The notes: generated by a model not told the origin, from the letters alone. 64,000 bases of DNA from Salinivirgaceae bacterium (GCA_017645945.1 JAGCNL010000034.1:1503-65502), one strand, 5' to 3'. Shown: positions 35,841-62,000, counted from the stretch's first letter. Program-made: numbers and translations.

Positions 35841-36004
35841 GTTTTAATATGATCAAAATTGTTAATATTCAAATTATTACAAATACGGCATTATGTCCAT
35901 AATATGGGAAAAATTACAAAAGAAACCTATTAAGAACTAAATCTCTTAAGTAATTTCCATAACATCGGGTTAATAACGGTTTTGCTACTTATAGCCATTA
36001 AAAA

Positions 36005-37153
36005 CTATATCAATGCGTCAACAATTCTACCACACGCCTTACCATCACCATAAGGATTCACGGCTTTGCTCATTTTATCATAATAAGCGGAATCATCCAA
36101 TAGTCGGCTAACCTCACTCACAATCAAGTCATGATTGGTGCCAACAAGTTTCACTGTTCCCGCATCAAGAGCTTCGGGCCGCTCGGTGGTATTACGCATA
36201 ACAAGCACCGGCTTGCCCAAACCAGGTGCTTCCTCTTGTATGCCGCCGCTGTCGGTAAGCACTACGGTGCTTTTCTCCATCAGATATACAAATTCAAGGT
36301 ACTGCAGCGGCTCAATGAAAAAGAAGTTATGGTATACGGTCAAATCATCGCCAAACACTTCGTGAATGGGTTTTCTGACATTGGGGTTTAAGTGCATCGG
36401 ATACACAAAATCAACATCAGGGTATTTTTCACTTAAATCTTTCATGGCGGTCACCATGCTAATGAACCCATCGCCGAAATTCTCTCTGCGGTGCCCTGTT
36501 ATCAATACTAGTTTTCGGCCATTGGCAAGTCGAGTTACATCGTAGCCTGCATTGGCAAGCACCTTCACCTGTTCGTCGGCAAGAGCCTTATCGCTTTTCA
36601 GTTTGTTCACCACCATGTGTAAGGCGTCGATAACCGTGTTGCCTGTCACATATACACTGCCTTGCGCTTTTTCCTCTTCAAGATTTCTTTTTGAAAGCGG
36701 TGTGGGTGCAAAGTTGTAAGTGGCTATGCGCCCTGTAATCTGTCGGTTCATCTCTTCGGGCCATGGACTGTAAATGTTCCGTGTCCGCAAACCCGCCTCA
36801 ACGTGCCCTACATGAATCTGCTGGTAAAAGGCCGCCAAGGCTGCGGCTGTGCTTGTTGTGGTATCACCATGCACAAGCACCACATCGGGTTGGACTTTTG
36901 AAAGCACATCGCGCATTCCTGTGAGCACTCGTGCTGTAACATCGTACAAGTCTTGGCCTTGCTTCATAATGTTCAAGTCGTAGTCGGGCACAACATCAAA
37001 AATGCGCAATACCTGGTCGAGCATTTCTCGGTGCTGACCTGTCACGCATACTATGGTTTCAAATTCTTTCGGATATTTTTGGAACTCTTTCACCAATGGG
37101 CACATCTTTATCGCCTCTGGCCGCGTTCCAAAAACTAGCATTATTTTTTTCAT
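36005..37153 (-). CDS. wecB: UDP-N-acetylglucosamine 2-epimerase (non-hydrolysing)
   Basis: MKKIMLVFGTRPEAIKM..., HVEAGLRT, DSGGIQEEAP. The start at 37153 is preferred over 37195, which would overlap the upstream gene. Confidence 0.9.
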   Translation of the reverse strand: MKKIMLVFGTRPEAIKMCPLVKEFQKYPKEFETIVCVTGQHREMLDQVLRIFDVVPDYDLNIMKQGQDLYDVTARVLTGMRDVLSKVQPDVVLVHGDTTTSTAAALAAFYQQIHVGHVEAGLRTRNIYSPWPEEMNRQITGRIATYNFAPTPLSKRNLEEEKAQGSVYVTGNTVIDALHMVVNKLKSDKALADEQVKVLANAGYDVTRLANGRKLVLITGHRRENFGDGFISMVTAMKDLSEKYPDVDFVYPMHLNPNVRKPIHEVFGDDLTVYHNFFFIEPLQYLEFVYLMEKSTVVLTDSGGIQEEAPGLGKPVLVMRNTTERPEALDAGTVKLVGTNHDLIVSEVSRLLDDSAYYDKMSKAVNPYGDGKACGRIVDALI

Positions 37154-37163
37154 ATTCAATTCG

Positions 37164-38348
37164 TTATATTCTAAACTCTTGGGGTTGCCTTCCATTCCAA
37201 ATAATAAGACATTGTGCTAGAGCCTTCATAAAGTCATTCATCTCTTCCATGTCATCACCTGAACATGCTTTATCTGAACCGCCCCAATTAGATTTTGCAT
37301 GAACAATGCGATTACGAGTTTCATAAATCACTTCTCCCAATTCATCTTTAATCTTGGCAATAATTGAATCGGCACAATTTCCTATTTCGTCAATTTTAAA
37401 AGAGCATTTACGACTAATGTTTATTTGTACCTCTTCTGGTAATAAATCGAAAATTGGAATAATATCCACACATTCTTGCAACACTGTCTTGCACAACTCC
37501 TTATCCTTCAAAGACGTTTGATAATGCTTTGCCAATTCAAGCAAAGAATCAAGATATTGACAATCCCTATTCACTATTGAAAGAGTATCCAGCCGTTGAT
37601 TTAACATTTCATAAGCCATCTTCTTGGATACTCTTGGCGAAAAGTGTTCTACGATTTTATATAAATGATGAAATTGAATATCAGGATCATTAATTCGTAG
37701 GGCATTAGCATAATACCTCATGGCTTCAGAATATGGTATAAGGGAATCTTTTTGCAATTGATACGGTTCAGACGGTTCCTCGCCCGTAATATCTTCCCAA
37801 GAATCAAACGTGCCGACCTCAATAGATATATCGTATTTGGCAGCAATCTGGTAAAGAAATCTCTCTATAATTTTATCTTCTTCATCTTTGGTGTATCGCT
37901 GTTCTGTTTTATAACGTAGTTCTAAAGCGGTATACATCGAACATGGGGAAACTCCAAATTCTTCGTTATAGATACCTTCTTTTGAAGCTACCAAACCAAT
38001 CAAGACAGGATTATAAATAATCTCCATGTCTATCAAGTCATCACTATATCTTACATTGGGCGCAAGATGGTCCAAATAGTAACAGTCAACGTTTAGTATT
38101 GTCTGACGGATATGGTTCATCCGAACAGTAGAGTCATCTTCTTTATTTAAACCATCCAAGTTGCTTGTGTAAAGCATAAAGTCGTCAACAGATATGGGTT
38201 CTTCTAAATTATCATCGGGATAATCAATGAAGATATACTCATCCCCTATCTTGATTTCATCTTCATCAAGGGGGTTGACGTTGAATTCATCATATAGCCT
38301 TTCTAATCGGCTCTTGATAGTTTTTATATTTCTAGTTGAGACTTTCAT
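37164..38348 (-). CDS. 394-aa protein: acidic N-terminal domain of unknown type plus C-terminal HEPN-like domain
   Basis: C-terminal Rx4H motif in IYETRNRIVHAK, preceded by helical segments (AMRYYANALRINDPDIQFHHLYKIVEHF), as in Apea/MAE_28990/Abi-type HEPN families. The N-terminal 200 aa are unrecognised. Confidence 0.5.
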   Translation of the reverse strand: MKVSTRNIKTIKSRLERLYDEFNVNPLDEDEIKIGDEYIFIDYPDDNLEEPISVDDFMLYTSNLDGLNKEDDSTVRMNHIRQTILNVDCYYLDHLAPNVRYSDDLIDMEIIYNPVLIGLVASKEGIYNEEFGVSPCSMYTALELRYKTEQRYTKDEEDKIIERFLYQIAAKYDISIEVGTFDSWEDITGEEPSEPYQLQKDSLIPYSEAMRYYANALRINDPDIQFHHLYKIVEHFSPRVSKKMAYEMLNQRLDTLSIVNRDCQYLDSLLELAKHYQTSLKDKELCKTVLQECVDIIPIFDLLPEEVQINISRKCSFKIDEIGNCADSIIAKIKDELGEVIYETRNRIVHAKSNWGGSDKACSGDDMEEMNDFMKALAQCLIIWNGRQPQEFRI

Positions 38349-38391
38349 ACTTTTTATCTCTTTTGCATTATCAAATTGTTATTTTCAACTA

Positions 38392-39159
38392 TCATTCTTC
38401 AACAATTCCATATTCATCAAATGGCACAATATCGTTTTCCCAAAATTCTATTGGCGACAAGCCGATTGAATGAGTTTTATAGTATAGTGTGAGAGCTATT
38501 GGGCTAGGGGTAATATTGGCATCTAAATTCGCGTCAGTGCACATAAAACCTCCACTGCCAGAAATTGCATCTCCAACTACAAGCAACACAATTGAGCGCA
38601 TATGATCCAACTCGCTATCTAGCCTATAAATATCATCTGTTTCTGCTATTGTAACCAATTCATCAAAAGATATTATCAATGTCTGTGCGGAAAGCAGGTT
38701 ATTTTTGTATTGTATTTTCTTACAATTACGGCAGGCGTAATCTAAGATTCTTGCTTCAACACTACTCATGCGTTTCAGCAAATCCACAAAATTCATGTTG
38801 CTATCATCGCGACCATCTGTCGTGCATGAAGAAGCGAACAGTCCCGCCCATAAGTTTTGTAGTTCGTCATCTTCTATTTGAGAACACTCATCTATTATGG
38901 TGAGCCCAACACGAGCATTTGCTGTAAGTTGAAGAGTCTGCCCATCGAAACACATACGGCCTTTCGCCTTTTCCAGTGTGCGAATAATATTATTCAGGCG
39001 CCATTGTCGAACCTTGTCCTGGATAAGGTATCCTAATTCCTGTAGACAAGGTTTACATACTATCTCCAAAAATGAAGATACTCCTTCTATCGTTGCTTTT
39101 GTAACCTCAAGTCCTGTCTCGGCGACTGGCTTTAAACCTAAAACATCCTTTATCTCCAT
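38392..39159 (-). CDS. Abi-alpha (DUF4393) family protein
   Basis: The N-terminal block CLQELGYLIQDKVRQWRLNNIIRTLEKAK and the later LQNLWAGLFASS match my recollection of the Abi_alpha signature. Confidence 0.65.
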   Translation of the reverse strand: MEIKDVLGLKPVAETGLEVTKATIEGVSSFLEIVCKPCLQELGYLIQDKVRQWRLNNIIRTLEKAKGRMCFDGQTLQLTANARVGLTIIDECSQIEDDELQNLWAGLFASSCTTDGRDDSNMNFVDLLKRMSSVEARILDYACRNCKKIQYKNNLLSAQTLIISFDELVTIAETDDIYRLDSELDHMRSIVLLVVGDAISGSGGFMCTDANLDANITPSPIALTLYYKTHSIGLSPIEFWENDIVPFDEYGIVEE

Positions 39160-39236
39160 ATTTTATGTTCTAATCAGTTTCAAACGGCGAACCGTATTCA
39201 CTTGGTGTTGTATTGGTTTATTCATGTTTATCCAAT

Positions 39237-39608
39237 TTACATTTTTATTCCTTCTAATCTCACCAAAGCATCCTTTTTCCTTGTTTCTATATTGGAATAA
39301 CACATTTGTTTTACAAACATCTTCCAAATCTCACTTTCATGAATATGTTCAAGTCCGAAATCTGTCAAATCTTTATACAGTTTTTCAATCTTGTCCAAAG
39401 TGCTACGGCTAAAGATTCCATCAGACAATTCCTTTTCAATTGACTTGGAATCGTTGCCTTTTAGCATCAATTTAACTTTGTCAAATTCTCGTCTATCGTA
39501 ATCTGTGGCTTGCGGCAACATTATCAATTCGGTAGCCAAAGTGAGCATATAATTGATAAAGTTTACGAAACTATCGTGCAAGTTTGATATGTATTGCTGT
39601 TGAGTCAT
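39237..39608 (-). CDS. 123-aa all-helical hypothetical protein
   Basis: The first ATG is at 39608 (the track start 39653 is TTG). No motif recognised. It is the first gene of the 3-gene module. Confidence 0.4.
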   Translation of the reverse strand: MTQQQYISNLHDSFVNFINYMLTLATELIMLPQATDYDRREFDKVKLMLKGNDSKSIEKELSDGIFSRSTLDKIEKLYKDLTDFGLEHIHESEIWKMFVKQMCYSNIETRKKDALVRLEGIKM

Positions 39609-39682
39609 ATATAAGTTTTTGTGTTCGCTTATTCTGCAATTAAACTGGCACAAATCTCATCAGTTTATTTATGCCGTGCAAA

Positions 39683-39713
39683 GAAAAAGCTCTGCCAATT
39701 TTGTGCAGTAAAT
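39683..39713. repeat. 31-bp direct repeat, copy 1 (flanks the SatD/DUF3307 cassette)
   Basis: GAAAAAGCTCTGCCAATTTTGTGCAGTAAAT matches 41297-41327 at 30 of 31 positions. Confidence 0.9.
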
Positions 39714-39749
39714 AAAAACTAACTGTGCGTCGTATCGATTATACTGGCG

Positions 39750-40448
39750 CTATGCTATCATACAAACCAACAATCCAACCAGAACTGCAATTGCAATACT
39801 GAGCAATGTTCCCACCAGAAAATATTCGGTTTCACTCTTATTGCCAAATCGGATAATTGATTTAGCCGCTATCAGGAAACCTATAACCTCATACTTGCCT
39901 AAAATTATAAAAGCCAATATTAGCCATCGTTCTAATGTCCCTATCAGTTTTCCTGCATGAAAGGCATCCATTTTCTCATCAGGCAATTTCACATTGTTAT
40001 AAACCAAAATGTTTTTGACAAATATGTTTGCTGGTTTCCAACACAAAATAGCGGCAAGCGCTATGGCTTCCACTTTCAAAACTGACACTGTGAACCAACG
40101 GGGACTCGTCCAATCAAAGAATTTCACACTTGCGTATGTTACAATAATTAAAATGGCAATATGTAAAATTTGGTCTATGGCAAACGTCCAAATGTTGTCT
40201 TCCTTTGTAAGTGCCGCCTTCGCCAAATCTATCAACAAATGGCTTGCTCCTATTATCAGGGCAAAACACCAAAACTTAATATTCCAAAACGCAATAAGCG
40301 ATGTGCCAGCTACAATAAGCGCATGGACATACATAAACCAACTGGCGCATTTCTTCTCTTTCTTCTGGACACATAGAGTTTCCGTTTGCAATACAAAATC
40401 GGCAATAAAATGAACCAACAGCAGACTCACGAGCAAATTAATCAACAT
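39750..40448 (-). CDS. DUF3307-family polytopic membrane protein
   Basis: The N-terminus LLLVHFIADFVLQT is the DUF3307 hallmark. Further intramembrane His/Asp pairs (SHLLIDLAK, IDQILHIAIL). It overlaps satD by 11 nt. Confidence 0.7.
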   Translation of the reverse strand: MLINLLVSLLLVHFIADFVLQTETLCVQKKEKKCASWFMYVHALIVAGTSLIAFWNIKFWCFALIIGASHLLIDLAKAALTKEDNIWTFAIDQILHIAILIIVTYASVKFFDWTSPRWFTVSVLKVEAIALAAILCWKPANIFVKNILVYNNVKLPDEKMDAFHAGKLIGTLERWLILAFIILGKYEVIGFLIAAKSIIRFGNKSETEYFLVGTLLSIAIAVLVGLLVCMIA

Positions 40449-41112
40449 AATCTTCGAATTTTATTTTTTCTAAAACACCTATCGCATTTCTTATAAGTTG
40501 CCATCCTGCACTTTTTGCCCTCAAGTTAACCGCCGCCTGGCTTGCCGACAACTCTTTGGCTATTTCAACTTCTCTCCATCCCAACAATTTATAGTATATC
40601 ACAAGGCATTGACGTTCTGTGAAACTGTCAATCATATTGTCAATCAATCTCAAATTGGTGGTTATAAGCGATTCTATATCTGCGTTCTCAGAACTAATTC
40701 CAAACATTGACGAATATCCGTTGGTATAAATGTAGTCCAAATTTCGACCCGCTATATATATGGCTTCCCCGTCCAGGAAATCTTCTCTCTTGTTAACAAT
40801 TCGCATGGTTCCTATTCCTATTGAATATCGGATTCCGCATTCCTTCATAAAATGTGATGCGTCATGGCCAAACGCCCATTTTTTGAACCAACACTTCATC
40901 AATATTGCTATTCTGAAAGCATACCACGGTTCGTCTATGCAACTTTCAATTGTATCACCCCTTACAACCCTTCCCCAAAAATCGGAACTTATCAAGGCAA
41001 GGTCCGAAAACAAATCTGCATATATTGCCCTACGCAATTGCAATAATTCATTTTCCTGCAATGATGTGGAATCCACCACATCACATGATACTATAGCATA
41101 TAACCTTCTCAT
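40438..41112 (-). CDS. SatD-family protein (cyclase-like N-domain plus C-terminal sigma-70 region-4-like HTH)
   Basis: The N-terminus YAIVSCDVVDSTSL...RGDTIES resembles the SatD/nucleotide-cyclase fold. The C-terminus ERQCLVIYYKLLGWREVEIAKELSASQAAVNLRAKSA is HTH-like. Paired with DUF3307, as is usual for SatD. Confidence 0.7.
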   Translation of the reverse strand: MRRLYAIVSCDVVDSTSLQENELLQLRRAIYADLFSDLALISSDFWGRVVRGDTIESCIDEPWYAFRIAILMKCWFKKWAFGHDASHFMKECGIRYSIGIGTMRIVNKREDFLDGEAIYIAGRNLDYIYTNGYSSMFGISSENADIESLITTNLRLIDNMIDSFTERQCLVIYYKLLGWREVEIAKELSASQAAVNLRAKSAGWQLIRNAIGVLEKIKFEDYVD

Positions 41113-41131
41113 TACACAAATATATTAGGTT

Positions 41132-41200
41132 TTTCCCTAATAAACAATATTTATTAAGTTTTTCCCTAATATTTTATGATTATTAGACATTTCCCTAATA
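41132..41200. promoter_or_regulatory. three 11-bp iterons (TTTCCCTAATA) at exact 29-bp spacing upstream of satD
   Basis: Copies at 41132-41142, 41161-41171 and 41190-41200. The intervening sequence is not conserved. The array starts 20 bp upstream of the satD ATG. Confidence 0.55.
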
Positions 41201-41296
41201 ACCATCACCTGCTTATGTCAACTTCTGCATAATCTCAATTTACAATTTCAGCAAGAAAACCAACACAAGTTTTCATTTGTCAATATACGATTCCGC

Positions 41297-41327
41297 GAAA
41301 AAGCACTGCCAATTTTGTGCAGTAAAT
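41297..41327. repeat. 31-bp direct repeat, copy 2
   Basis: GAAAAAGCACTGCCAATTTTGTGCAGTAAAT, located 1614 bp from copy 1. Confidence 0.9.
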
Positions 41328-41380
41328 TTTGTTTGAAGTTGTGTGAGTTACGAGCAATCTTAAACTGTATTCTAAACGAA

Positions 41381-41683
41381 CTATTCCTCGTGCATATTCT
41401 GTGCATGACAAGCGTCAACTATGGTAACCGTGCTACCGTCGAAAGTATAGGCGAAATACCATTTGTCGGTGTTGGCCATGTAATAGCCGTTCCAACGGGT
41501 TATGGTTGGATTTCGGCGTAAAAGAGTTTGTTCAATTTGGTAAATGGAAAAGACTGCATCATGGACATTTCGTTTCAAATCGGCTTTATCATAAGTGTGG
41601 CGGTACTTCTTTGCCACATTCTGATAAAAAGAGAATTTTTTTTGTGCTGCGCGTGGCTTGATAATATAATTCAAATTAGCCAT
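41381..41683 (-). CDS. RelE/ParE-superfamily toxin-like protein
   Basis: About 100 aa. The C-terminus WYFAYTFDGSTVTIVDACHAQNM resembles the ParE terminal strand-helix. The ATG at 41683 overlaps the upstream stop by 8 nt (the track start is TTG). Confidence 0.45.
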   Translation of the reverse strand: MANLNYIIKPRAAQKKFSFYQNVAKKYRHTYDKADLKRNVHDAVFSIYQIEQTLLRRNPTITRWNGYYMANTDKWYFAYTFDGSTVTIVDACHAQNMHEE

Positions 41684-41891
41684 TGGCGTATATTGAATCA
41701 ATCTCCTCCGAAATCACACCATATAAACCATCTACCGTTATGTCACGTTGCAGCGCAGACATGCGGCTTTCGGATTTCACATGAGCATCCAACACATCTT
41801 GAGCCCAACGGCGTATGGCTTCCTTACTATCAAGGTCAGGGCGGGCAGCCTTGATTGCATTCTCATCTATTTCTAAAGTTAATGTACACAT
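41676..41891 (-). CDS. 71-aa putative antitoxin
   Basis: A small acidic protein directly upstream of and overlapping the toxin-like ORF. No family recognised. Confidence 0.35.
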   Translation of the reverse strand: MCTLTLEIDENAIKAARPDLDSKEAIRRWAQDVLDAHVKSESRMSALQRDITVDGLYGVISEEIDSIYANG

Positions 41892-41954
41892 GGTCTTATA
41901 TGTTTTTTACAAATGTAACCGAATTTAATAAATGTATAAGTTTGCATTAAATCC

Positions 41955-42953
41955 TTATAACAGGCTTGCGACACGTATAGAGAAAGCCTCATTAAAAGGA
42001 ATTTTCTCGTGATTGTTACAATACTCTTTCCATGCCTTCTCTTCATGACTTATGCGAGATAACTCACGAGACGATTTTTTACCAAGTAATGAACAAACCT
42101 TATCCATTACTTGAAGTTCAAAATCGGTAAACAGAGAAACATCGGCGTTTTGAGTTGCAATCAGAACGCTCCCTTCAAAATCGCCTGCCTGGCGGAACTC
42201 TTGATGTACTTCAGGAAACTCGCTGTACACCTTCTCCCATCGTTCCGGCACCGGCCCAAAATCTACAGCCCGATACGAAAGTCCCGTAATAGCCATTCCA
42301 CTGTCGCGATACGAGAGAAAATCGACATAAAACAACAGCTTGTTCATTTTGGTGCACCACACATCATCACATCTCTCTAATATGTACAGCATAACGTTCT
42401 TCAACCTATCCAACGATAGTTGTGCATAGCCATTCTCCTTGTTTCGCAATGTTGAGAAAATTCGTTTGATTTCGTATTGTTCCAATTTATAAGAGTCGCT
42501 GTCGGCAATAATGGATTTCACCTTGCTGCTGATTTTTTCGTAATCAGACTGCGACATCTCATTCTTCGAACTTTCAACCATCTCCAACATCACCTTGGGG
42601 TTGCTTATTGAGCGTATCATTCTACCGTTCGAGACACTGGGCACTTCGCCTTGTTCATATTTACGGTACTGATTAACACCTATGCCTAGTATCAACGACA
42701 TTTTTGCCGCACTGACATCATATTTGTTCCTTATCGATATTATTTCATCGGTATATGGAATGCCGTATTTATCTCTATATTGGTTGGTTACCTGTACAAA
42801 CCCCGCAGTATCGCTCAAATCATCGGTAAAACTCTCACCAGAATCACTGCAGAACCAAGATGAATGTTCATACTCATACTGTTCGCCACGAAAATTCCAG
42901 ATGCGTTTCTCGTATACGCGTTGCATTTCTTTACCTGTAAACGGGCTTTTCAT
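41955..42953 (-). CDS. MqsA-like (degenerate Zn ribbon plus XRE HTH) antitoxin fused to a Panacea/DUF4065 (SocA-like) domain
   Basis: The N-terminus aligns by eye with E. coli MqsA (FRG..., GIGVNQYRKYEQGEVPSVSNGRMIRSI versus GGGVNAFSRYEKGNAQPHPSTIKLLRVL), but the Cys ligands are lost. The C-terminal KLLFYVDFLSYRDSGMAITGLSYRAVDFGPVP is the DUF4065 signature. Confidence 0.65.
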   Translation of the reverse strand: MKSPFTGKEMQRVYEKRIWNFRGEQYEYEHSSWFCSDSGESFTDDLSDTAGFVQVTNQYRDKYGIPYTDEIISIRNKYDVSAAKMSLILGIGVNQYRKYEQGEVPSVSNGRMIRSISNPKVMLEMVESSKNEMSQSDYEKISSKVKSIIADSDSYKLEQYEIKRIFSTLRNKENGYAQLSLDRLKNVMLYILERCDDVWCTKMNKLLFYVDFLSYRDSGMAITGLSYRAVDFGPVPERWEKVYSEFPEVHQEFRQAGDFEGSVLIATQNADVSLFTDFELQVMDKVCSLLGKKSSRELSRISHEEKAWKEYCNNHEKIPFNEAFSIRVASLL

Positions 42954-42955
42954 AA

Positions 42956-43312
42956 CTACTCCTCCATTTTAAACGGATACAACAAAGGCTGTTCGGCTAT
43001 ATGAAAAGAGATACAAATTGTTTGACAACCAACTCCGCCTAACATAATCTTGATATATATTTCACGGCCTTTTACATCTTTTCCGAAAACCCACATTTCA
43101 CCAAGTTTGTTCAACTCGTCCACTACCGGGCCTTGCACGTAATCCTCAACCATAAGGTTTTCGATAACAACTCTTCTGTACGAAGGAACAATCTCCAATT
43201 CTTCAAGTGTTTTCTGGTTTTTCCCTCTATCATCGCGATAGATTATGCCAAAAACCTTCAACTTTTGATGAAACTGCACCAAGAATTTTTGTACTTCGTC
43301 TTTTGTTACCAT
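42956..43312 (-). CDS. MqsR-like toxin
   Basis: 118 aa, with the toxin-first gene order of mqsRA. The C-terminus EIYIKIMLGG...ICISFHIAE resembles MqsR QVYLKITVIHDVLIVSFKEK. Confidence 0.5.
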   Translation of the reverse strand: MVTKDEVQKFLVQFHQKLKVFGIIYRDDRGKNQKTLEELEIVPSYRRVVIENLMVEDYVQGPVVDELNKLGEMWVFGKDVKGREIYIKIMLGGVGCQTICISFHIAEQPLLYPFKMEE

Positions 43313-43373
43313 AATTCACTTTTGAGTTGCAAAAGTATTTGATTTAACGCAAAAATACAACTTTAAGGTTGAT

Positions 43374-43392
43374 TATAATTTGGCAAATTATA
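43374..43392. promoter_or_regulatory. 19-bp palindrome upstream of the mqsR-like gene (candidate operator)
   Basis: TATAATTTG-G-CAAATTATA, 62-80 bp upstream of the ATG at 43312. Confidence 0.35.
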
Positions 43393-43437
43393 AATGTTTG
43401 AATGTGGAATGTGAAATTGTGTGGTATTCGAAGACGG

Positions 43438-43788
43438 TCAATTTTCTTTAATGCCATTCAACAATTCTTGTATCTGAAATGTGAGCGAAGGAATGATATT
43501 CTTTGCAACATCCCAAACTATATGATAATTAACACCCATGTAATCATGCACCAATCTGTCGCGCATACCCGCCATCTGTTTCCATTCTATACTTCTCCAT
43601 TCATATTTAACATCGGCGAGTATTTTCTTTGTTGCCTCACCAATTATTGAAAGGCTTCTTGTCACAGCACGTTTCAATGTCTCATCAGCAAGGAATTGGT
43701 CAATGACCATTTCTTTGGTTATTACCGAGTTAATGTAATTGCACTCATCAAGAATGTGCTGAAGATATGGGATAAACGATTTACACAT
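43438..43788 (-). CDS. hepT: HepT-like HEPN (DUF86) toxin
   Basis: 116 aa with Rx4H in MRDRLVHDY. It overlaps the upstream nucleotidyltransferase gene by 8 nt. Confidence 0.8.
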   Translation of the reverse strand: MCKSFIPYLQHILDECNYINSVITKEMVIDQFLADETLKRAVTRSLSIIGEATKKILADVKYEWRSIEWKQMAGMRDRLVHDYMGVNYHIVWDVAKNIIPSLTFQIQELLNGIKEN

Positions 43789-44074
43789 ATTCCACTTCGT
43801 TTAATATGATTTTACCAATATAAGGGCTCATTCCGTTACGGGTAACAACATCGAGTTTGTGCCGTTTGAAATTTTGTTCAAGAATTTGACACGCATCAAT
43901 AAAATTCACATACGTTTCCTGCCCTTCTTTAAAATCGAGCAAAATATCGATGTCACTATGGGCGGTATTATCACCACGGACAGTTGACCCAAAAAGCCCC
44001 AATTGTGACACGCCAACATTGCTCAACTGCTCTTTTAGGCTATTCAGCCTATGCAATACAGAACTTTTCTTCAT
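43781..44074 (-). CDS. mntA: MntA-like minimal nucleotidyltransferase antitoxin
   Basis: 97 aa with the NTase motif LFGSTVRGDNTAHSDIDILLDF. Confidence 0.85.
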   Translation of the reverse strand: MKKSSVLHRLNSLKEQLSNVGVSQLGLFGSTVRGDNTAHSDIDILLDFKEGQETYVNFIDACQILEQNFKRHKLDVVTRNGMSPYIGKIILNEVEYV

Positions 44075-44118
44075 AGCTAATGTAACTCAAAATATTATTA
44101 CAGAAAACCTCTCCACAA

Positions 44119-44137
44119 ATGAATGAACATCATTCAT
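44119..44137. promoter_or_regulatory. inverted repeat upstream of mntA (candidate operator)
   Basis: ATGAATGA-ACA-TCATTCAT with perfect 8-bp arms, 45-63 bp upstream of the mntA ATG. Confidence 0.35.
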
Positions 44138-44273
44138 GTCGCTTTCTCCCACAGCTTCGCCACTGTCGGGTGCGGGTTTCGCACGACAATGACTTATCAA
44201 ACAAATGTAGAAAAAAAGCAGAATGGATTTAAAAGATTTATTGTTTTGCCGAAGGCCGTGCAACCTTACACTT

Positions 44274-44321
44274 ACAACTCAAAACTTTGAACTTAAAACT
44301 TATAACTCAAAACTTAACTCA
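44274..44321. repeat. 14-bp tandem repeat (about 3.4 copies) at the wecA stop / island boundary
   Basis: ACAACTCAAAACTT TGAACTTAAAACTT ATAACTCAAAACTT AACTCA, read directly. Confidence 0.8.
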
Positions 44322-45488
44322 TCGTTCCATCTTGCGGTCCATCAGGCGGCGCATCAGGTCCCAGAAGCCTTTGCGCTCAACATGCGATGCCTCGCCAACA
44401 CGCAGCAGCCAATTGTAAATGGCCGAATTGCGGCGCTGTTGGACTCTGACAAACTGATAGAACCCGAAGGTAACGAGTAGTGCCAGCAGCAGAACAATAT
44501 AGAGTTGAAGATTGATTGACGCGCCCAACTTGTACGACAGGAACCAGACAACCACCACCGCAAAGTCGGTGAGAATCAGGCAGACGGTGGTGCCCACATG
44601 CGAGAATCCCATCTCAATGAACAGATGGTGAAGGTGCAGTTTGTCGGGGCGGAAAGGCGGCAAGCCGTTGATTATGCGGGCAAGCATCACCCTTAACGTG
44701 TCGAACACAGGCACAGCCAGAACGGCCAGTGTGAACGGAATCAGACCCACACCTTTCAGCATCAGAGCGGTGCTGGCGGGGTTGGTTGTCAGAATCGTCA
44801 TCACAAACAGTGCCATGATGGTACCCATAAGCAGTGTGCCGCCGTCGCCGATGAACATTTTCGACTTGCGGCCGAACACATTATGCAGGAAGAAAGGAAT
44901 GAGTGCGCCAGCAGCACCCACGGCGATTATCATCATTGTTTGATTTCCAAGAGCATAGAACATGATGGCGAACACCGAGCAGGCCATTGCGCCAAAGCCC
45001 GACGAGTAGCCGTCGACACCGTCGATAAGGTTGATGGCGTTCATGATGCCCACCGAAGCAAACACCGTGAGCGGAACGCAAAAATAATCGGGAACGCTGC
45101 GAACGCCCCAGAGTCGGTAAAAATCACCTAACTTAATGTCGCCCAAATAGATGACATACAACACAACACCTATCTCGAAGATGAATCTCACTGCGGGTGA
45201 CAAGCCTTTGGCATCGTCGATGGTGCCGATAATCAGCATCACCGTCATGGCAATGACTGTGATTGTGAGCATTTTGGTGTCTAAAAAGAAAACGCCAAGG
45301 ATTGTAACAATCAGAATACCAACAAAAACGGTTATGCCGCCAAGCACGGGCACAGGCACGCGCTGCAGTTTGCGGGCGTCGGGGTTGTCAACAATGCCAT
45401 ACTTGATGGCGAAGTTCAACACCCAACCGTAGATGAACCACGTTGACACGAATGCTGTTACAAATGATATGGCTACCTTCCAAAACAT
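44319..45488 (-). CDS. wecA: undecaprenyl-phosphate HexNAc-1-phosphate transferase (WecA/MraY family)
   Basis: Polytopic protein with DNPDARKLQRVPVPVLGGI and NAINLIDGVDG motifs. Confidence 0.85.
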   Translation of the reverse strand: MFWKVAISFVTAFVSTWFIYGWVLNFAIKYGIVDNPDARKLQRVPVPVLGGITVFVGILIVTILGVFFLDTKMLTITVIAMTVMLIIGTIDDAKGLSPAVRFIFEIGVVLYVIYLGDIKLGDFYRLWGVRSVPDYFCVPLTVFASVGIMNAINLIDGVDGYSSGFGAMACSVFAIMFYALGNQTMMIIAVGAAGALIPFFLHNVFGRKSKMFIGDGGTLLMGTIMALFVMTILTTNPASTALMLKGVGLIPFTLAVLAVPVFDTLRVMLARIINGLPPFRPDKLHLHHLFIEMGFSHVGTTVCLILTDFAVVVVWFLSYKLGASINLQLYIVLLLALLVTFGFYQFVRVQQRRNSAIYNWLLRVGEASHVERKGFWDLMRRLMDRKMER

Positions 45489-45563
45489 TGCGCTACATCA
45501 GTTTTTTCCACTGCAAAAATATACTTTTTTGTTTTTGGTTGTCATCTTTCTACAAAAATCGTA

Positions 45564-46832
45564 CTAAAGTCGACCGTCAACTTTATCTTTTGGCAGCACA
45601 CCCTTCACATCGAAAATTATGTGGTTCTTTTTCAGGAACGATTCAATGTCGAGCGCTTTAAACTCGTCGTGGGCCACGGCCAGAACGGCGGCGTCAAATT
45701 GTTGACTATCAATTTTACTAGCAATATCTATGCCATACTCGCGTTTTGCAGCGGCGGCATTTGCCCAAGGGTCGTAAATTGTGATGTTCAGATTGTACTC
45801 ACGCAGCGACTGCACAATGTCGAAAACCTTGGTGTTGCGCACGTCGGGGCAGTTTTCCTTGAAGGTGAAGCCCAGAATCAGGATGTTCGAGCCCAGAACC
45901 TGAATGCCCTTCTTGAGCATCAGTTTAATCACCTGATTTGCAACATAATCGCCCATTCCGTCGTTCATTCGGCGGCCAGCCAGAATAATCTCGGGGTTGT
46001 AGCCGTAGCGTTGAGCGCACTGCGCCAGATAGTACGGGTCGACGCCGATGCAGTGACCGCCCACCAGTCCAGGCTTGAACGGCAGGAAGTTCCACTTGGT
46101 GGATGCGGCTTCAAGCACGTCGTTGGTGTCGATGCCCATCCGCGTGAAAATCTTCGACAACTCGTTTACGAAGGCGATGTTGATGTCGCGCTGCGAGTTC
46201 TCAATCACCTTTGCCGCCTCTGCCACCTTGATAGTCGGAGCCAAATGCGTGCCCGCGCTGATTACCGATGAGTAAACCTCGTTGATTTTCTGTCCTATTT
46301 CTGGAGTTGAGCCCGATGTCACCTTCTTGATTTTCTCAACAGTGTGCAGTTTGTCGCCAGGATTGATGCGCTCTGGCGAGTATCCCGCAAAGAAATCGAC
46401 GTTGAATTTCAGTCCTGAAACCTCTTCGATAACGGGGATACACTCTTCTTCGGTCACACCAGGATAAACAGTTGATTCATAAACAACGATGTCACCTTTT
46501 GCAATTACTCTTCCAATGGTAGTGCTGGCGCCGTAGAGCGGTGTCAGGTCGGGGTTGTTATCCTTGTCAACGGGGGTCGGCACGGCCACAACGTAGAAGT
46601 TGCAGTCGCGAATCTGTTCAATGTCGGCCGTGCAGCGGAATCCGCTTTTGATAGCCGATTGCAGCAACTCGTCGCTCACCTCGAGCGTGGCGTCGTGCCC
46701 CTGCATCAAAGCATCAACACGGGCCTTGTTCATATCAAATCCGACGGTCGGGTATTTTGTCGAGAAAAGTCGGGCAAGTGGAAGTCCAACATATCCTAGA
46801 CCAACTACACATATTTTCGTTTCCTTCATCAT
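45564..46832 (-). CDS. UDP-HexNAc 6-dehydrogenase (TviB/WbpO-like)
   Basis: N-terminus [18 protein letters not shown], catalytic [14 protein letters not shown], and about 420 aa. Confidence 0.8.
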
Positions 46833-46885: not shown

Positions 46886-47239
46886 CTATTTATCTGTTTT
46901 ATCAATCAATTTTGCAATCATTCTCCTTATTTCAATCACTTCTTTTGCTAATTCATCGTATTCTGTTTCTGTAAGATAGTCTAATTCATGAGCCAGTTGT
47001 AATTCATAATCGACTTCACTCGCAGAACCAACAGAAATCTGCAAAAAACGACAAAAATCAGCATCACTTTTTCTGCCGCAACCTTCTGCTATGTTTGTCG
47101 GAATCGACATAGCCGCGCGCCTAATTTGCGATGTAAGCCCGTATATTTCTTCTTTGGGGAATTTGCGAGTTATTTGATACACATTTATCACAAAGGTATG
47201 GCTACGAGACCAAACTGTCAGATTTCTAAAATCTCTCAT
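46886..47239 (-). CDS. four-helix-bundle protein (23S rRNA intervening-sequence protein family)
   Basis: Hallmarks [26 protein letters not shown] and [10 protein letters not shown]. The ATG at 47239 lies 2 nt after the upstream stop (the track start is TTG). Confidence 0.85.
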
Positions 47240-47241
47240 AA

Positions 47242-48267
47242 TCAAACATTTTTATTATGATTAACAGACTCACATCCGCTCATGGCTGACTGCTCATTGC
47301 TCAAAGCTGAAAAATACCATTTACAAGCCTCCCTCAACCCCTCTTTAAAGAAATATTTCGGTGCGTAACCCAACAGATTTTTCGCTTTTTCGATTGATGC
47401 AAGCGAGTGCGGAATGTCGCCAGCACGATTTGGGCCGTGAACTGGTTCAATTTTTGCAATCTCAGCATCGTATTCTGACAAGTTTTCTTTCAGATAATCA
47501 AACAGTTGATTCAATGTTGTGCGCTCGCCGCAAGCCGTATTGTAAATCTGATTGACGGCTTGTTGATTGTCGGTCAGCATTGCCAAAAGGTTCATTTCCA
47601 CCACGTTGTCGATGTATGTAAAATCGCGGCTGTAATCGCCTGTGCCGTTGATAGTCGGTTGCTCGTGAGCGATTAACTTCTTAACAAACAACGGAATGAC
47701 TGCTGCATATGCTCCATTTGGGTCCTGTCGGCGGCCAAAAACGTTGAAATAACGCAGACCGATATATTCAATGCCGTATGTCCGTGCAAAAACATCGGCA
47801 TACAACTCGTTGACATACTTTGTAATAGCGTACGGCGACAAAGGGCGCCCAATCACATCCTCAACCTTTGGCAGAGTGGTCGAATCGCCGTAAGTGGATG
47901 AACTGGCGGCGAAAATGAAACGTTTCACTTTGGCGTCACGGGCTGCAATGAGCATATTCAAGAATCCGCCGATATTCACCGCATTGGTTGTGGCAGGGTC
48001 TTTAATCGAGCGGGGCACTGAACCCAAAGCGGCTTCGTGCAACACGTAGTCGGCACCGTTGACGGCCGTCTGGCAATCACTCAAATTGCGGATATCGCCC
48101 ACAATAAGGCTGAAACGGTCAGGGTATTTTTCGAGCAACGGATTGATATTTTCGATGTGACCAGTCGAAAAATTGTCAAGGCAGACCACCTCGTCGCCGC
48201 GCTCAAGAAGCGCCTCGCACAAATTCGAGCCTATAAATCCCGCTCCGCCTGTTACTAAAACCTTCAT
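47242..48267 (-). CDS. UDP-HexNAc(A) 4-epimerase (TviC/WbpP-like SDR)
   Basis: MKVLVTGGAGFIGSNL, catalytic YAITKY, and pairing with a TviB-like dehydrogenase. The ATG is at 48267. Confidence 0.8.
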   Translation of the reverse strand: MKVLVTGGAGFIGSNLCEALLERGDEVVCLDNFSTGHIENINPLLEKYPDRFSLIVGDIRNLSDCQTAVNGADYVLHEAALGSVPRSIKDPATTNAVNIGGFLNMLIAARDAKVKRFIFAASSSTYGDSTTLPKVEDVIGRPLSPYAITKYVNELYADVFARTYGIEYIGLRYFNVFGRRQDPNGAYAAVIPLFVKKLIAHEQPTINGTGDYSRDFTYIDNVVEMNLLAMLTDNQQAVNQIYNTACGERTTLNQLFDYLKENLSEYDAEIAKIEPVHGPNRAGDIPHSLASIEKAKNLLGYAPKYFFKEGLREACKWYFSALSNEQSAMSGCESVNHNKNV

Positions 48268-52848: not shown

Positions 52849-53289
52849 CTAATACAACCATTCAGGAATTTCTCCTTTATATTGATAGTTTTTGATTTTT
52901 TCAAACCCTATTCCAAGAACAAGTTCCTCAACATTAAAATTAATCAAATAACCTAACGGTTTATTGGCCAAATGAAGGTAATTGTTCAGTTGTTTATAAT
53001 GAATGCTTTCAAATGCGGCAATCGATTTAAGTTCAAGAATTAAAATGTTTTCCACTAAAATATCCATACGAAATCCCAAACCTAAATCCTCACCACAATA
53101 AGCAACATTTATGGGGACCTCGCTTTCGGCCGCTATTCCTTGATTTTTTAATTCAATTAATAAAGCCTTTTTATATACCGATTCTAAAAGTCCTGACCCT
53201 AATTTTGAATGAACTTTCATAGCGCAACCAATAACTTTATACGCTAAAGTATCTTTCTTGCACTTTGTATATTCCTCCAATAAATCCAT
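52849..53289 (-). CDS. GxxExxY protein (PD-(D/E)xK-like small protein family)
   Basis: GLLESVY motif and FRMDILVENILILELKS, 146 aa. Confidence 0.85.
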   Translation of the reverse strand: MDLLEEYTKCKKDTLAYKVIGCAMKVHSKLGSGLLESVYKKALLIELKNQGIAAESEVPINVAYCGEDLGLGFRMDILVENILILELKSIAAFESIHYKQLNNYLHLANKPLGYLINFNVEELVLGIGFEKIKNYQYKGEIPEWLY

Positions 53290-59023: not shown

Positions 59024-62000
59024 TTAATAAACCATTACACGTTTGGCTGTGTTATTAACCTTCACAATGTAAAAGCCCTGGTTCTGCATTATTATCTCGG
59101 TGCGCGAACCTGCTGCCTGTTCCTTGGCAACCATGCGGCCGTTGACATCGAAGATGCTGATTTCGCCCTCAAGAGCGTCGGCTGACTCAACCACAATCAC
59201 ATTTTGGTATGCATAGATGTTCACGGCTGCAGCCTCGTCGTCGCTGATGGCGGTGTTGTCGTTGGCCTCAACAGTAACATCGAAGGTTGCGGTGAGCACC
59301 ACCTTGTCGATCTTGAGCGTTATGGTAAGTTGCTGTGCGCCAACCTTGTCGGCATCGAAACCGCTGACCATATCGGCCTTAAGCTCAATTTCGGCAGTGG
59401 TGTTGTCGCTGTAGGTGACGGTGATTTTGCCGCCAGTCACATCCAGAGCCTCGCCCTGCTTGTATTCAACCTTGGCAGGTTTTGCGCTCACTGCAATCGA
59501 CTTGGCCACAATCTCGATGACCTCAGCCTCTTTCACCTCAACATCGAATGTTGTTGTGTAAGGCACGCCGTCAATCTCGAACGAAACCGTAACAGTCTGA
59601 ACGCCAACGCTGTCTGGTTTGAATCCGCTGATCATTTCAGGAGTGATGACAACCTCAGCCGTTGTGCTGTCGCTGGTGGCGAAGATGAGTTTGCCGCCCT
59701 CAAGATTCAGGCTGTCGCCGACGGTATAGTTGATTTGGCTGATAACAACCTCAGCGTCAATTGGTTTGGCAATGTCTTTCACCTCAACATCGAATGTTGT
59801 TGTGTAAGCCACGCCGTCGATTTCGAATGAAACCATAACGGTCTGAACGCCAATGCTGTCGGGGTTGAAACCGCTGACCATTTCAGGAGTGATGACAACC
59901 TCAGCCGTTGTGCTGTCGCTGGTGGCGATGACGATTTTGCCGCCATCGAGTTTCAGGCTGTCGCCGACGGTGTAACTGATTTGGCTGACAACAACCTCAG
60001 CGTCAATCTTCGGAGCAACAAGTTGCGGAACCACAACCTTGGTGCGGCTCAACTCAACCTTGCAAACCGAGCAGTAAACCACTGAATCGTAAGAGCCTGC
60101 GGCCTTGTATGTTGCAGCCACAACATTCTCAATGACAATGCTGTCGGCCTTATGACCTTTGGCAGGAATAACCTCTTGTGCCTTTATAATTGTATTGCAA
60201 ACCGGGCAGTGAGAGCCTTCTGTCAAGCCTGATTCTGTGCAAGTTGCTGCAACGGCTACGTCAACTACCTCAGTGTGAGCAATAACAGGTAACTCAACTG
60301 TCTTGCGGCTGATTTCTGCTTTGCAAACAGTGCAATAAACTACTGAATCAACTGAGCCTGCAGCGGTGCAAGTTGCGGCCTTCAAGTTCTCGGCAACGGC
60401 AGCACCTGCAGTGTGGGATGCAACAGGAATCTCAACAGTCTTGCGGCTCAATTCTGCCTTGCAGACTGTGCAATAAACAACTGAGTCAACTGAGCCAGCA
60501 GCGGTGCAGGTTGCGGCTTTCAGGTTCTCGGCAACGGCTGCGCCTGCAGCGTGACCTGCGGCAGTAGTAGTTGTTTGTGCAACAAGCACTTCGTGGCAAA
60601 CATCGCAATGCGAGCCTTCAGTAAGGCCAGTGGCGGTGCAGGTGGCGGCAACTGCGGGATCAACCACAATATGGTGGCCAGCAGGAATGACAACCTTGAT
60701 GCGACTCAACTCAATCTGGCAAACTGAGCAGTAAACCACTGAGTCGCGTGAACCAGCGGTGGTGCAGGTTGCAGCCACAACATTCTCGAACACTACGCTG
60801 TCGGCCTTGTGACCTGTGGCGGCAACAGTGTCAGAATACTCAATGTGCTGGCAGCGCGAGCAAAGGTGCTCGGTGTAGCCATCGGCGGTGCAAGTCGGGG
60901 CAACCACGGTCTCAACAAAGTCGTGACCGAGAGCAGGAATGCTGTCGCCCATCTCGTAAATCTGGCCGCAGAGTTTGCAACTTGTGTTGCCTGTGTAGCC
61001 CTTGTGGGTGCAGGTAGGCTCGAGAGTGTAGAGGGTGGTGTTGCCCTCGTTGTGCAGGCACTCAAGGCGTGTGATTGTAATATCAACGCTCTCAACCTCG
61101 TAGTTGCCCTTGTCGGCACCAGTGTAGTTGGCAGTGGCGGTGTTGTCGCCCTCTTCGAGAGCCTGTTGCTCATCGGCCCATTTCCAATCATCGGGCAGTT
61201 CAACCAATTGAGTAACAATGAAGCGTGTCTCAATATTTGCCTCAGGCTTGTTGGGTGCCTCGGCAGCCCTGTTGATGGTGAGAGCACCATCGACAATATT
61301 GAATGTAACCTCGGCAAAGTTCTTATTGGTGTTGCTGAAATCGTCAGCCGACAGTTGCATCGGGTAAACGCCAGCGTTGATACCGCTTGCTGTGGCAGTG
61401 CCGCTGAACGCGAAATCGTCTTCGGTGTAAACGCCTGTGGCATCGCTGATGGCTACAGAGTAACCGCTAACGCTCTGCTCCTCACCATTATAAGTGAGTG
61501 TGCTGCTGTTCTCGGTTACGGTGACAACAACCTCAGTGTTAGGAGTGATGATGAGTTTGCCATCGGTAACATCGAAGCGGACATTGGTGAAGTTCGTGCT
61601 GGTGTTGCTGAACATTTCAGCATTCCAGCCGAAAGCGTACTCTGCAGCATTGGTGCCGCTCACGCTTGCAGCGTTGCCCGATGCCGAAACCCAACTGATA
61701 TTGTAAAGCGCGTTGTTGGCCTCGATGGTGAGTGCATCTTCAGAGTTGTAAGTCTGCGCCGCGCCGCTGAATACCACGCTCTTGTCGGCAAGTGTTATGG
61801 TCACAACCACCTCATCTTCAATAGGTTTGATGGTGAACTGGCTGCTGACAACATTCTCAGCATCGTTGTTGTTGGTGAGGCTGATGGTTGCCTGGCCAGC
61901 GTTGATGTTGTTGGCGTACGACACTGTGTAAGCATCGCCATAGGTGAACACTTTTCCGCAGATGGTGCGGCTGACAGTGAACTCAATGTCATCGTAGGCC

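Follow-up and report, generated by a model that had tools for sequence, protein, structure and literature searches.

Gene content of the island

The stretch of DNA considered here, hereafter the window, comprises 64,000 nucleotides (nt) from a Salinivirgaceae bacterium (GCA_017645945.1 JAGCNL010000034.1:1503-65502), and its subject is an island of putative toxin-antitoxin (TA) and candidate abortive-infection genes lying within a polysaccharide locus, between the genes wecA and wecB. Between about 54.4 kb and about 20 kb every long open reading frame (ORF) is on the minus strand, and together they form one long polysaccharide locus, encoding epimerases, two UDP-sugar dehydrogenases, glycosyltransferases, a flippase, an aminotransferase and a deacetylase. 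The locus is bordered by housekeeping genes, with a SurA-type PPIase and CorC on one side and LptC, FtsX, TruB and QueA on the other. The right flank of the island is wecA (44319..45488, minus strand), a conserved anchor that encodes an initiating transferase of the WecA/MraY type (Glycos_transf_4, 389 amino acids (aa); PF00953, 101 bits), and the left flank is wecB, the gene of a UDP-GlcNAc 2-epimerase (36005..37153, minus strand; PF02350, 383 bits).

Between these two genes, from about 37164 to 44149, lie 11 genes, none with a glycan-synthesis domain and all on the minus strand, that is, in the orientation of the operon; 11 forward genes are also called on identical contigs. A previous reading made from the sequence alone (the sequence-only reading) had described a co-directional non-glycan block between wecA and wecB, which is indeed what lies there, and had counted thirteen genes in it, a figure to be lowered to 11, the number to which its own list adds up as well. 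The final stop codon of the island (37164-37166) stands exactly 10 nt ahead of the wecB ATG at 37153, as that reading had stated. In G+C content the island (37.6%) is below its conserved flanks (about 48%) and matches the variable glycan genes downstream (37.7%). Domain-family searches recovered no integrase or transposase domain among the island proteins or the scanned flanking genes, in agreement with what had been claimed for the island. Exact copies of the WecA protein are present on contigs of several independent rumen and gut metagenome assemblies, with the same island in all four places shown, and a fifth assembly, 94% identical, bears it too; since the same arrangement recurs in at least five independent assemblies, the island is not an assembly artefact.

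The window allele is a stack of independent modules, namely four gene pairs (MntA/HepT, g3/Panacea, g5/g6 and SatD-like/DUF3307) and three single genes (g9, Abi_alpha and a HEPN-like gene), all coordinates of which refer to the minus strand. The first pair encodes an MntA-type minimal nucleotidyltransferase, the putative antitoxin of a type VII TA system (97 aa; 43781..44074; PF01909, 46.7 bits; PADLOC PDC-S09, 4.5e-27), and a HepT (DUF86) HEPN RNase, the putative toxin (116 aa; 43438..43788; PF01934, 86.5 bits). This assignment is well supported: like the type VII MntA/HepT system, the pair is an antitoxin-first bicistron with an overlap of 8 nt, and the translations carry the NTP_transf_2 signature GS...DxD (here GS...DID, in MntA) and the Rx4H motif of HepT/DUF86 (here RDRLVH, in HepT). 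Unlike the characterised pair, the two proteins miss the NCBIfam equivalog cut-off of 60 bits (38.6 bits for MntA and 42.5 for HepT), and are to be regarded as Pfam members rather than as its equivalogs.

The second pair consists of g3, a putative toxin of 118 aa (PanT; 42956..43312), and, 2 nt further on, a 332-aa protein in which an MqsA-type Zn-ribbon/helix-turn-helix (HTH) N-terminus is fused to a Panacea (DUF4065) antitoxin domain (41955..42953). The antitoxin assignment is well supported, with the Panacea domain scoring 73.5 bits against PF13274 (cut-off 25.7 bits) and the N-terminus falling just under the thresholds of the MqsA profiles (PF15731, 28.2 bits against a gathering score of 30; TIGR03830, 60.5 against 61.8); moreover, the HTH region is 30% identical to E. 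coli MqsA. The adjacency of the two genes is kept across contexts. The toxin is a more difficult case. No match to g3 was obtained in Pfam, NCBIfam or PADLOC, and its structure model is unusable (pLDDT 45); the family is large (1213 hits; 1219 representative clusters at 50% identity), and close relatives are labelled simply 'toxin' by NCBI. It had been called MqsR-like. Aligned by hhalign with E. coli MqsR, a shallow profile of g3 gave a probability of 0.6%, and a diverse profile gave 53% (E 1.4e-4, 63 columns) over an alignment that takes in the Y-[IL]-K-I and S-F-[HK] stretches; faint PF15723 matches are seen in 8 of 28 relatives (best E 0.048). Since MqsR-like toxins are the commonest recognisable class of partners of Panacea antitoxins (PMC8832971), the diverse-profile match and the faint PF15723 matches make the label plausible but unproven. 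The pair shares with PanAT systems (PMC8832971) the Panacea domain, a small upstream gene 2 nt away whose product is weakly MqsR-like, and relatives in defence islands; it departs from the typical PanAT in the sub-threshold MqsA-type N-terminus of the antitoxin and in a toxin family that has no above-threshold Pfam match.

The third pair is formed by g5, a putative antitoxin of 71 aa (41676..41891), and g6, a putative toxin of 100 aa with a RelE/ParE fold (41381..41683), which overlap by 8 nt and are invariably paired in relatives. The g6 family comprises 847 homologs, none of them with a Pfam domain, and g6 itself shows no signature in Pfam, NCBIfam, PHROGs or PADLOC, nor by profile against PDB sequences, which does not sustain the ParE label at the sequence level. 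What stands of that label comes from structure prediction: the AlphaFold2 model of g6, of low confidence (pLDDT 60), has a beta-alpha-alpha-beta3 topology, and in a Foldseek search of the PDB its top matches, about 40, were all toxins of the RelE/ParE/YoeB/YafQ/HigB superfamily (best E 9e-3, probability up to 0.99, TM 0.43-0.52). Tentatively, g6 may thus be assigned to the RelE/ParE fold, not to ParE specifically. Searches of PDB sequences with single sequences and with profiles gave nothing meaningful for g3, for g6 or for the 394-aa protein described below. As a separate observation, in another genome a homolog 75% identical to g6 forms a tight unit with a 91-aa upstream gene and, 1 nt on, a Y1_Tnp (IS200-like HUH) gene (L136-L143; here and below, related loci are designated by L and a number).

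The fourth pair is made of a SatD-like protein of 224 aa, with a cyclase-like N-terminus and an HTH C-terminus (40438..41112), and a DUF3307 membrane protein of 232 aa (39750..40448; PF11750, 82.1 bits; phrog_2470, membrane protein), whose gene overlaps the former by 11 nt. The DUF3307 assignment is well supported, and the name SatD, given by the sequence-only reading, is not borne out by its profile, which is matched below the Pfam threshold (PF16264, E 0.0055, 16.8 bits against a cut-off of 29 bits). The two genes are always paired, and the pairing is kept in three other loci.

The remaining three genes are single. The 123-aa helical protein g9 (39237..39608) has, like g5, no family match in Pfam, NCBIfam or PHROGs. 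It is followed by a 255-aa protein of the Abi_alpha (DUF4393) family (38392..39159; PF14337, 56.8 bits against a gathering score of 29 bits; PADLOC PDC-S47, 5.5e-10), a candidate abortive-infection effector whose family assignment is well supported and whose match spans positions 26-145 of the 196 of the profile. Like Abi-alpha of Enterococcus faecalis prophage 6 (PMC6356687), it scores above the Pfam threshold and is a single-gene candidate abortive-infection protein; unlike it, the gene is chromosomal rather than prophage-borne, the host belongs to a distant phylum and the profile match is partial. The last gene encodes a HEPN-like protein of 394 aa (37164..38348), of a small family (52 homolog clusters). 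For this protein the HEPN label draws on a C-terminal Rx4H motif (RNRIVH), a marginal match to PF17419 MauJ (29.0 bits, cut-off 28) and a PADLOC match to DzbB (1e-5), and loses on the side of HEPN_Apea, which stays under its cut-off (E 0.0019, 19.1 against 24.4 bits). Neither this protein nor the Panacea antitoxin has close relatives among viral contigs. The labels MntA/HepT, MqsA::Panacea, DUF3307 and Abi-alpha of the sequence-only reading are matched by their families, with the slight reservation on the MqsA N-terminus given above. Its grouping of the small protein, Abi-alpha and HEPN genes into one fixed module must be abandoned, as the three occur separately in relatives: g9 is present without Abi_alpha in L133, L135 and L152, and an 87% identical copy of Abi_alpha has different neighbours in L005.

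Conserved elements and breakpoints

Two nucleotides past the wecA stop codon there is a 14-bp tandem repeat in 3.4 copies (period 7/14; 44270..44316, found with Tandem Repeats Finder, TRF), which had been taken as the mark of the right edge of the island. The repeat is real and the edge lies elsewhere. In fact, every close relative has repeats of period 7, 14 or 28 after its wecA stop, irrespective of what comes next (L005 6790-6898; L007 11169-11203; L008 11184-11252), and these are hypervariable both in unit sequence (AAGTTTT-type or AGAGTAA-type) and in copy number; the repeat is therefore a feature of the locus and not an insertion scar or an island edge.

The edge is provided by E1, a conserved non-coding element (44150..44252, minus strand; blastn and alignment) whose 3' end is the right breakpoint, variable DNA beginning at about 44142-44150. 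E1 contains a Bacteroidetes-type -7 box, TACATTTG (44209-44202), and a 24-mer, GCACCCGACAGTGGCGAAGCTGTG (44173-44150, minus strand), that is invariant in L005-L008, L010 and L011, even where WecA identity is down to 77-78% and in L010, which has no island. Each locus has a single copy of E1 and its 24-mer, island-less L010 included, and in L005 an extra MNT/HEPN pair is located between wecA and E1. A hairpin is predicted in E1 (z = -2.8), with no covariation; the absence of compensatory changes and a variable 5' arm speak against E1 as a structured RNA, and without covariation support for the hairpin its conservation is one of sequence. Moreover, no Rfam match is found in the region 36000-46000.

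A second conserved element, E2 (about 85 nt; 39629..39713, minus strand), is 95-98% identical in at least ten loci and splits the island into slot A, from E1 to E2, and slot B, from E2 to the glycan genes. Its edges are sharp and its neighbours vary, being DUF3307, g6, a 145-aa gene, MqsA-Panacea or an S24 peptidase on the upstream side and g9, a 104-aa gene, SIR2, FdtA, a 514-aa gene or a 97-aa gene on the downstream side. The left breakpoint coincides with the stop codon of the 394-aa gene, where homology with L005 resumes (37165), so that the variable DNA is delimited by three sharp and shared breakpoints, at 44142-44150, 39713/39629 and 37165.

A diverged paralog of E2, called E2' (41247..41328, minus strand; repeat search, nhmmer 32 bits), is found ahead of SatD in the window and also in L152 and L153. 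As its first 31 nt (41297-41327) are identical to E2 at 30 of 31 positions, a 31-bp direct repeat stands on either side of the 1.6-kb SatD/DUF3307 segment. The corresponding empty site, in which g6 is followed directly by E2, is seen in L005, L006 and L011, and the 31-mer holds a short inverted repeat, ACTGC-N9-GCAGT. Such a bracketed segment with empty sites in relatives, the inverted repeat, the sharp edges of E2 against many different neighbours and the common direction of all cassettes are what would be expected if a recombinase encoded elsewhere inserted cassettes at E2-type sites, as in an integron. The array recalls the Vibrio superintegron in its co-directional small cassettes, its many TA pairs and the bracketing of one cassette by a repeated element; it differs from it in the absence of an integrase, and of attC-like sites between most cassettes. 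The phylum of the Bacteroidales is not known for integrons. Furthermore, an nhmmer profile of E2 retrieves E2 and E2' alone in each locus, with no copies at other cassette junctions, and the repeat search disclosed no other repeat family at these junctions; the sequences at the remaining breakpoints, E1 and the start of wecB, are unrelated to it. When metagenomes were scanned with the E2 core, 41 matches were obtained, of which only 10 extend into E2 outside the core (nine over most of the element and one over the 31-nt part); those of the 10 with identifiable flanks lie in this polysaccharide locus, and the other matches are explained by chance agreement with the 18 specified bases. Since there are no further E2 copies at the junctions, full-length E2 is confined to this locus in the metagenomes scanned and no integrase is present in the island or the scanned flanking genes, an integron-like system is highly improbable, and homologous recombination at conserved anchors would be the simpler reading. 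The idea that E2 is itself a widespread mobile element was likewise discarded, since scanning the metagenomes recovered its full-length form from no other locus or lineage.

Variation among sister lineages

A scan of one genome per species recovered WecA proteins 77-99% identical to that of the window in MAGs labelled Salinivirgaceae or Bacteroidales, which come from the digestive tracts of water buffalo, sheep, yak and other ruminants. In L005-L008, where WecA is 98-99% identical, the ugd-wecA flank is 90-94% identical at the DNA level and the set of cassettes is different in each. L006 carries the first three modules of the window, then ThsA-like SIR2 and DUF4209 proteins, then sulfatase and flippase genes, and lacks wecB. 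L005 begins with a different MNT/HEPN pair, g5/g6, a 104-aa gene and a PDC-M41A/B pair (304 aa and DUF5131; 1e-108 and 1e-111), and continues with a 122-aa gene, the 87% identical Abi_alpha and a 687-aa HATPase_c_3 protein before wecB/wecC. L008 has a YhcG/DUF1016 nuclease (PDC-S02, 5e-128), MqsA-Panacea without g3, a 514-aa gene and a 92% identical 394-aa HEPN-like gene, followed by wecB/wecC, and L007 has only two small ORFs without assignment ahead of FdtA/acetyltransferase/DegT. At a WecA identity of 77-78% (L010-L012), L010 and L012 are island-less, with sugar-pathway genes directly after wecA. Additional architectures are represented by L011, L118, L125, L133, L135 and L152, whereas L009 (WecA 88%), with convergent genes downstream, is uninformative. 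Altogether, at least nine architectures follow wecA among the loci with 77-99% identical WecA, empty sites included, and in every relative compared the cassettes are co-directional with the operon.

Because closely similar flanks hold different cassettes in sister lineages, the site is a variable hotspot for defence and TA genes. It apparently marks the point where the common genes of the locus (ugd, wecA), which are conserved, give way to the glycan-specific ones, which are exchangeable. Island genes are not conserved core genes of these loci, as there are relatives with other cassettes or none, and the description of the block as an accessory island of TA and candidate abortive-infection genes in operon orientation, with no mobility gene, is supported. 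As regards the glycan-specific part, L118 (1852-1939) and L135 (2019-2107), two loci that lack wecB, retain upstream of FdtA a remnant of about 90 nt of the wecB 5' end (86-87% identical), which is best taken as a scar of the replacement of the variable glycan region.

Cassettes and glycan genes assort independently: the glycan genes that accompany one set of TA modules differ between the window and L006, and the same wecB/wecC genes are preceded by different cassettes in L005 and L008. This speaks against TA genes locking in a particular glycan cassette. The sequence-only reading had suggested that the modules might stabilise the cassette by addiction. On this view, TA pairs would hold the linked glycan-specific genes in place because recombinants without the locus would be eliminated by post-segregational killing. 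TA modules are known to stabilise adjacent DNA in superintegrons and plasmids, and three TA-type pairs are indeed found immediately upstream of the glycan-specific genes. Nonetheless, the same three pairs are linked to wecB/DegT in the window and to SIR2/sulfatase/flippase genes in L006, wecB/wecC are tied to wholly different cassettes in L005 and L008, and the island-less L010 and L012 retain the full locus. Toxin decay is a further argument on the same side. L153 shares 94% identity with the window over the length of the island; its g3 bears a 1-nt deletion and codon 22 of its g6 has changed from CAG to TAG (decayed alleles at L153 2783-3155 and 4395-4815), both partner antitoxin genes being intact, and in L008 g3 is deleted and MqsA-Panacea is kept together with the upstream region. 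Weakened by independent assortment and by this decay, stabilisation through addiction is improbable. Loss of the toxin first, with the antitoxin kept, fits the pattern expected of TA pairs.

TA genes downstream of wecA were also considered as a general feature of the Bacteroidales, and this was rejected: a set of 72 more distantly related wecA loci of Bacteroidales contains none of the island families, and the 33 small ORFs placed right after wecA in them gave only one PIN and one HTH_3 domain. Within the polysaccharide locus of the window, three more selfish-looking genes lie co-directionally on the minus strand, namely a 23S_rRNA_IVP four-helix-bundle gene (46886-47245), a PDDEXK_3 gene (about 52849-53289) and an ATPase_2+DUF234 gene (20812-22170), and therefore the 7-kb island is not the sole non-glycan insertion there. 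Upstream of the locus the window also encodes a protein of 1568 aa in which GLUG and Big_3 repeats are combined with a Por_Secre_tail, a type IX secretion sorting domain (59024-63730, minus strand).

Genomic contexts of the modules elsewhere

Outside this locus, the modules are mobile and keep the company of defence genes, as is directly seen in the contigs that carry their relatives. The g3/Panacea relatives belong to co-directional arrays with HipBA, type I restriction-modification, AbiEi/AbiEii, AAA_13/SMC and DUF3800 genes, in which DNA homology is limited to the pair. A 51% identical homolog of the 394-aa protein is placed between Gabija-like genes (an OLD-TOPRIM ATPase and a UvrD helicase) and topoisomerase genes of the type found in conjugative elements, in a region resembling an integrative and conjugative element (ICE), and a 72% identical one comes after a RADAR-like pair. 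The SatD-like/DUF3307 pair shares an array with a 394-aa homolog in one other lineage, and in L152 a copy more than 90% identical lies between heptose-pathway and FdtA genes, alongside a PIN_3 pair and an S24 peptidase. Defence-type arrays that contain 394-aa homologs and are appended to polysaccharide genes occur at L154 660-5797, L145 8217-11424 and L157 7217-13107; one such array holds a RADAR-like pair of 879 and 829 aa (A_deaminase), and another a 706-aa gene, DUF3791/DUF3990, DUF6016 and a KAP NTPase.

These contexts bear on the idea that the island genes have been misread as TA and defence genes and in fact serve, as conserved accessory components, the synthesis or regulation of the polysaccharide. 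The co-orientation and the tight spacing to wecB would suit such components, as would a SatD-like protein with an HTH and a DUF3307 membrane protein. Against it stand the strong family matches to HepT, MntA, Panacea and Abi_alpha, the location of g3/Panacea and 394-aa relatives in defence islands unrelated to glycan genes and, above all, the variable presence of the genes in close relatives, island-less loci included, a comparison by which the idea is largely refuted, so that next to no likelihood is left to it.

Expression signals and relation to the polysaccharide operon

Scanning the coding strand of the island predicted no intergenic hairpin resembling an intrinsic terminator, and strong terminators isolating the genes from the operon are accordingly not seen. 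The counts of sigma-70-type promoters and of terminators do not exceed those of shuffled sequences, Bacteroidetes using other promoter motifs; the full TTTG-N-TAnnTTTG pattern has no match in the island, which leaves the -7 box as the only informative part. Five of the six TAnnTTTG boxes of the coding strand are located in intergenic gaps, though these make up 13% of the island, and stand upstream of MntA (within E1), of g3 (two, at 43357 and 43337), of g5 (TACATTTG, 19 nt upstream) and of SatD (TATATTTG, at 41124-41117). Upstream of g3 there is also a perfect, operator-like palindrome, ATAATTTGcCAAATTAT (43375..43391), which overlaps a TTCACA-17-TATAAT match, and upstream of SatD three operator-like palindromic units, TATTAGG-N6-CCTAATA, with a spacing of 29 bp (41116..41204; TRF and repeat search), which end 5-10 nt ahead of the SatD ATG. 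The first four modules have, then, a promoter-like box each, and two of them operator-like palindromes as well; judged from the motifs, these would be the usual marks of autoregulated modules. No exact -7 box precedes g9, Abi_alpha, the 394-aa gene or wecB, and E2 contains a 7/8 match, so these four genes probably depend on E2 or on read-through. Therefore, the statement that the island leaves no room for a separate promoter is valid for wecB itself and not for several of the modules, with their own -7 boxes and operator-like palindromes.

As E1 precedes the variable region in an island-less relative too, the island may lie in the leader of a variable transcription unit rather than simply in the middle of an operon. 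This arrangement is the starting point for a functional coupling, according to which the cassettes, being in the leader of the variable polysaccharide unit, would allow a receptor glycan and a post-adsorption defence to be expressed and inherited together, and their position would be under selection. Several observations speak in its favour: E1, with its -7 box and 24-mer, stands ahead of the variable region in island-bearing and island-less relatives alike, the wecB ATG follows the last island gene after 10 nt with no terminators predicted, the cassettes are co-directional in every relative, and both the 394-aa protein and SatD-like/DUF3307 have homologs in other lineages that repeatedly stand beside polysaccharide genes. 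It is mainly because of this recurrence that a functional link with polysaccharide loci is not to be dismissed. On the other hand, cassettes and glycan sets assort independently, the first four modules carry their own promoter-like boxes and two of them operator-like palindromes, TA-type genes right after wecA are rare in the 72 distant Bacteroidales loci (one PIN and one HTH among 33 small ORFs), and the same modules are found in ordinary defence islands and ICE-like regions. On balance, selection of the position through such coupling is unlikely.

A probable lineage-specific hotspot for defence cassettes

Taken together, the interval downstream of wecA is probably a lineage-specific hotspot for TA and candidate anti-phage cassettes, whose placement is best accounted for by hitch-hiking and by tolerance of insertions. 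In mechanistic terms, each of the first four modules would act alone from its own promoter box. By analogy with characterised families, MntA would neutralise the HepT RNase, the Panacea protein would neutralise g3 and g5 would neutralise g6, with labile or titratable antitoxins restraining RNase and other toxins until infection or stress frees them. Abi_alpha and the HEPN-like protein would be single-gene effectors that abort infection (PMC3710099, PMC6356687). The anti-phage function and the trigger assumed here come from knowledge of the families (PMC8832971 for Panacea, PMC6356687 for Abi-alpha, PMC3710099 for HEPN).

The turnover itself may proceed by recombination, with cassettes gained, lost and swapped at the anchors represented by the 3' end of E1, both edges of E2 and the start of wecB. 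The cassettes would be tolerated without silencing the glycan genes downstream because they are oriented with the operon and have no predicted terminators. As for the placement, hitch-hiking in a frequently exchanged region combined with insertion tolerance would explain it, and a role in polysaccharide synthesis or an 'addiction' of the locus would explain it less well.

Some points weigh against this hotspot reading. Within the lineage of the window itself the island is stable, being present in five assemblies, in one of them with decayed toxins, and turnover is seen between sister species-level lineages. Polysaccharide genes (wecA, or Bac_transf with or without DegT) are the immediate neighbours of the 394-aa family in four of the five contexts inspected, which hints at something beyond random hitch-hiking. 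No role in defence is known for SatD/DUF3307, whose function may be a different one, and the family assignments of g5, g9, the SatD-like protein and, at the sequence level, g3 and g6 are absent or below threshold. Moreover, the statements on promoters and terminators come from simple motif scans, and the source lineage consists of uncultured metagenome-assembled genomes (MAGs) of rumen Bacteroidales, for which the whole analysis is computational and based on sequences.

A defence hotspot is a known kind of structure. Like the chromosomal hotspots described in the E. coli pan-genome (PMC10121019), the present one is a fixed site between conserved genes with a varying content of TA, Abi and defence genes, and its island is integrase-free and low in G+C. 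Unlike them, it sits in a co-directional polysaccharide locus, with cassettes oriented as the operon and with E1 and E2 delimiting two slots; the unusual features here are the address in a polysaccharide locus and the two conserved non-coding elements. In the literature searched, no description of a defence or TA island inside a polysaccharide locus was found, and among the papers listed for SatD/DUF3307 none was relevant.

Implications for the biology of rumen Bacteroidales

Which phages can adsorb depends on surface polysaccharides, and what becomes of them afterwards depends on defence islands. In its boldest form, the arrangement described here would make the wecA junction of rumen Bacteroidales a preferred and recurrent landing site, where E1 and E2 tie the expression of cassettes to that of the glycan genes and where receptor and immunity are transcribed, exchanged and selected together; this is doubtful. 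If placement is due to hitch-hiking only, the finding is that of an ordinary defence hotspot at an unusual address. In either case the locus offers several leads: two widespread, un-annotated candidate toxin families (g3, 1219 clusters; g6, 847 hits), each with alleles in which the putative toxin is naturally knocked out, a small family of HEPN-like proteins (52 clusters) that is repeatedly met beside polysaccharide genes, and two strongly conserved non-coding elements. From a wider perspective, the interleaving of receptor and defence genes, with a turnover of cassettes at fixed breakpoints, provides a concrete place in which the joint exchange and expression of the two can be tested in gut and rumen Bacteroidales.

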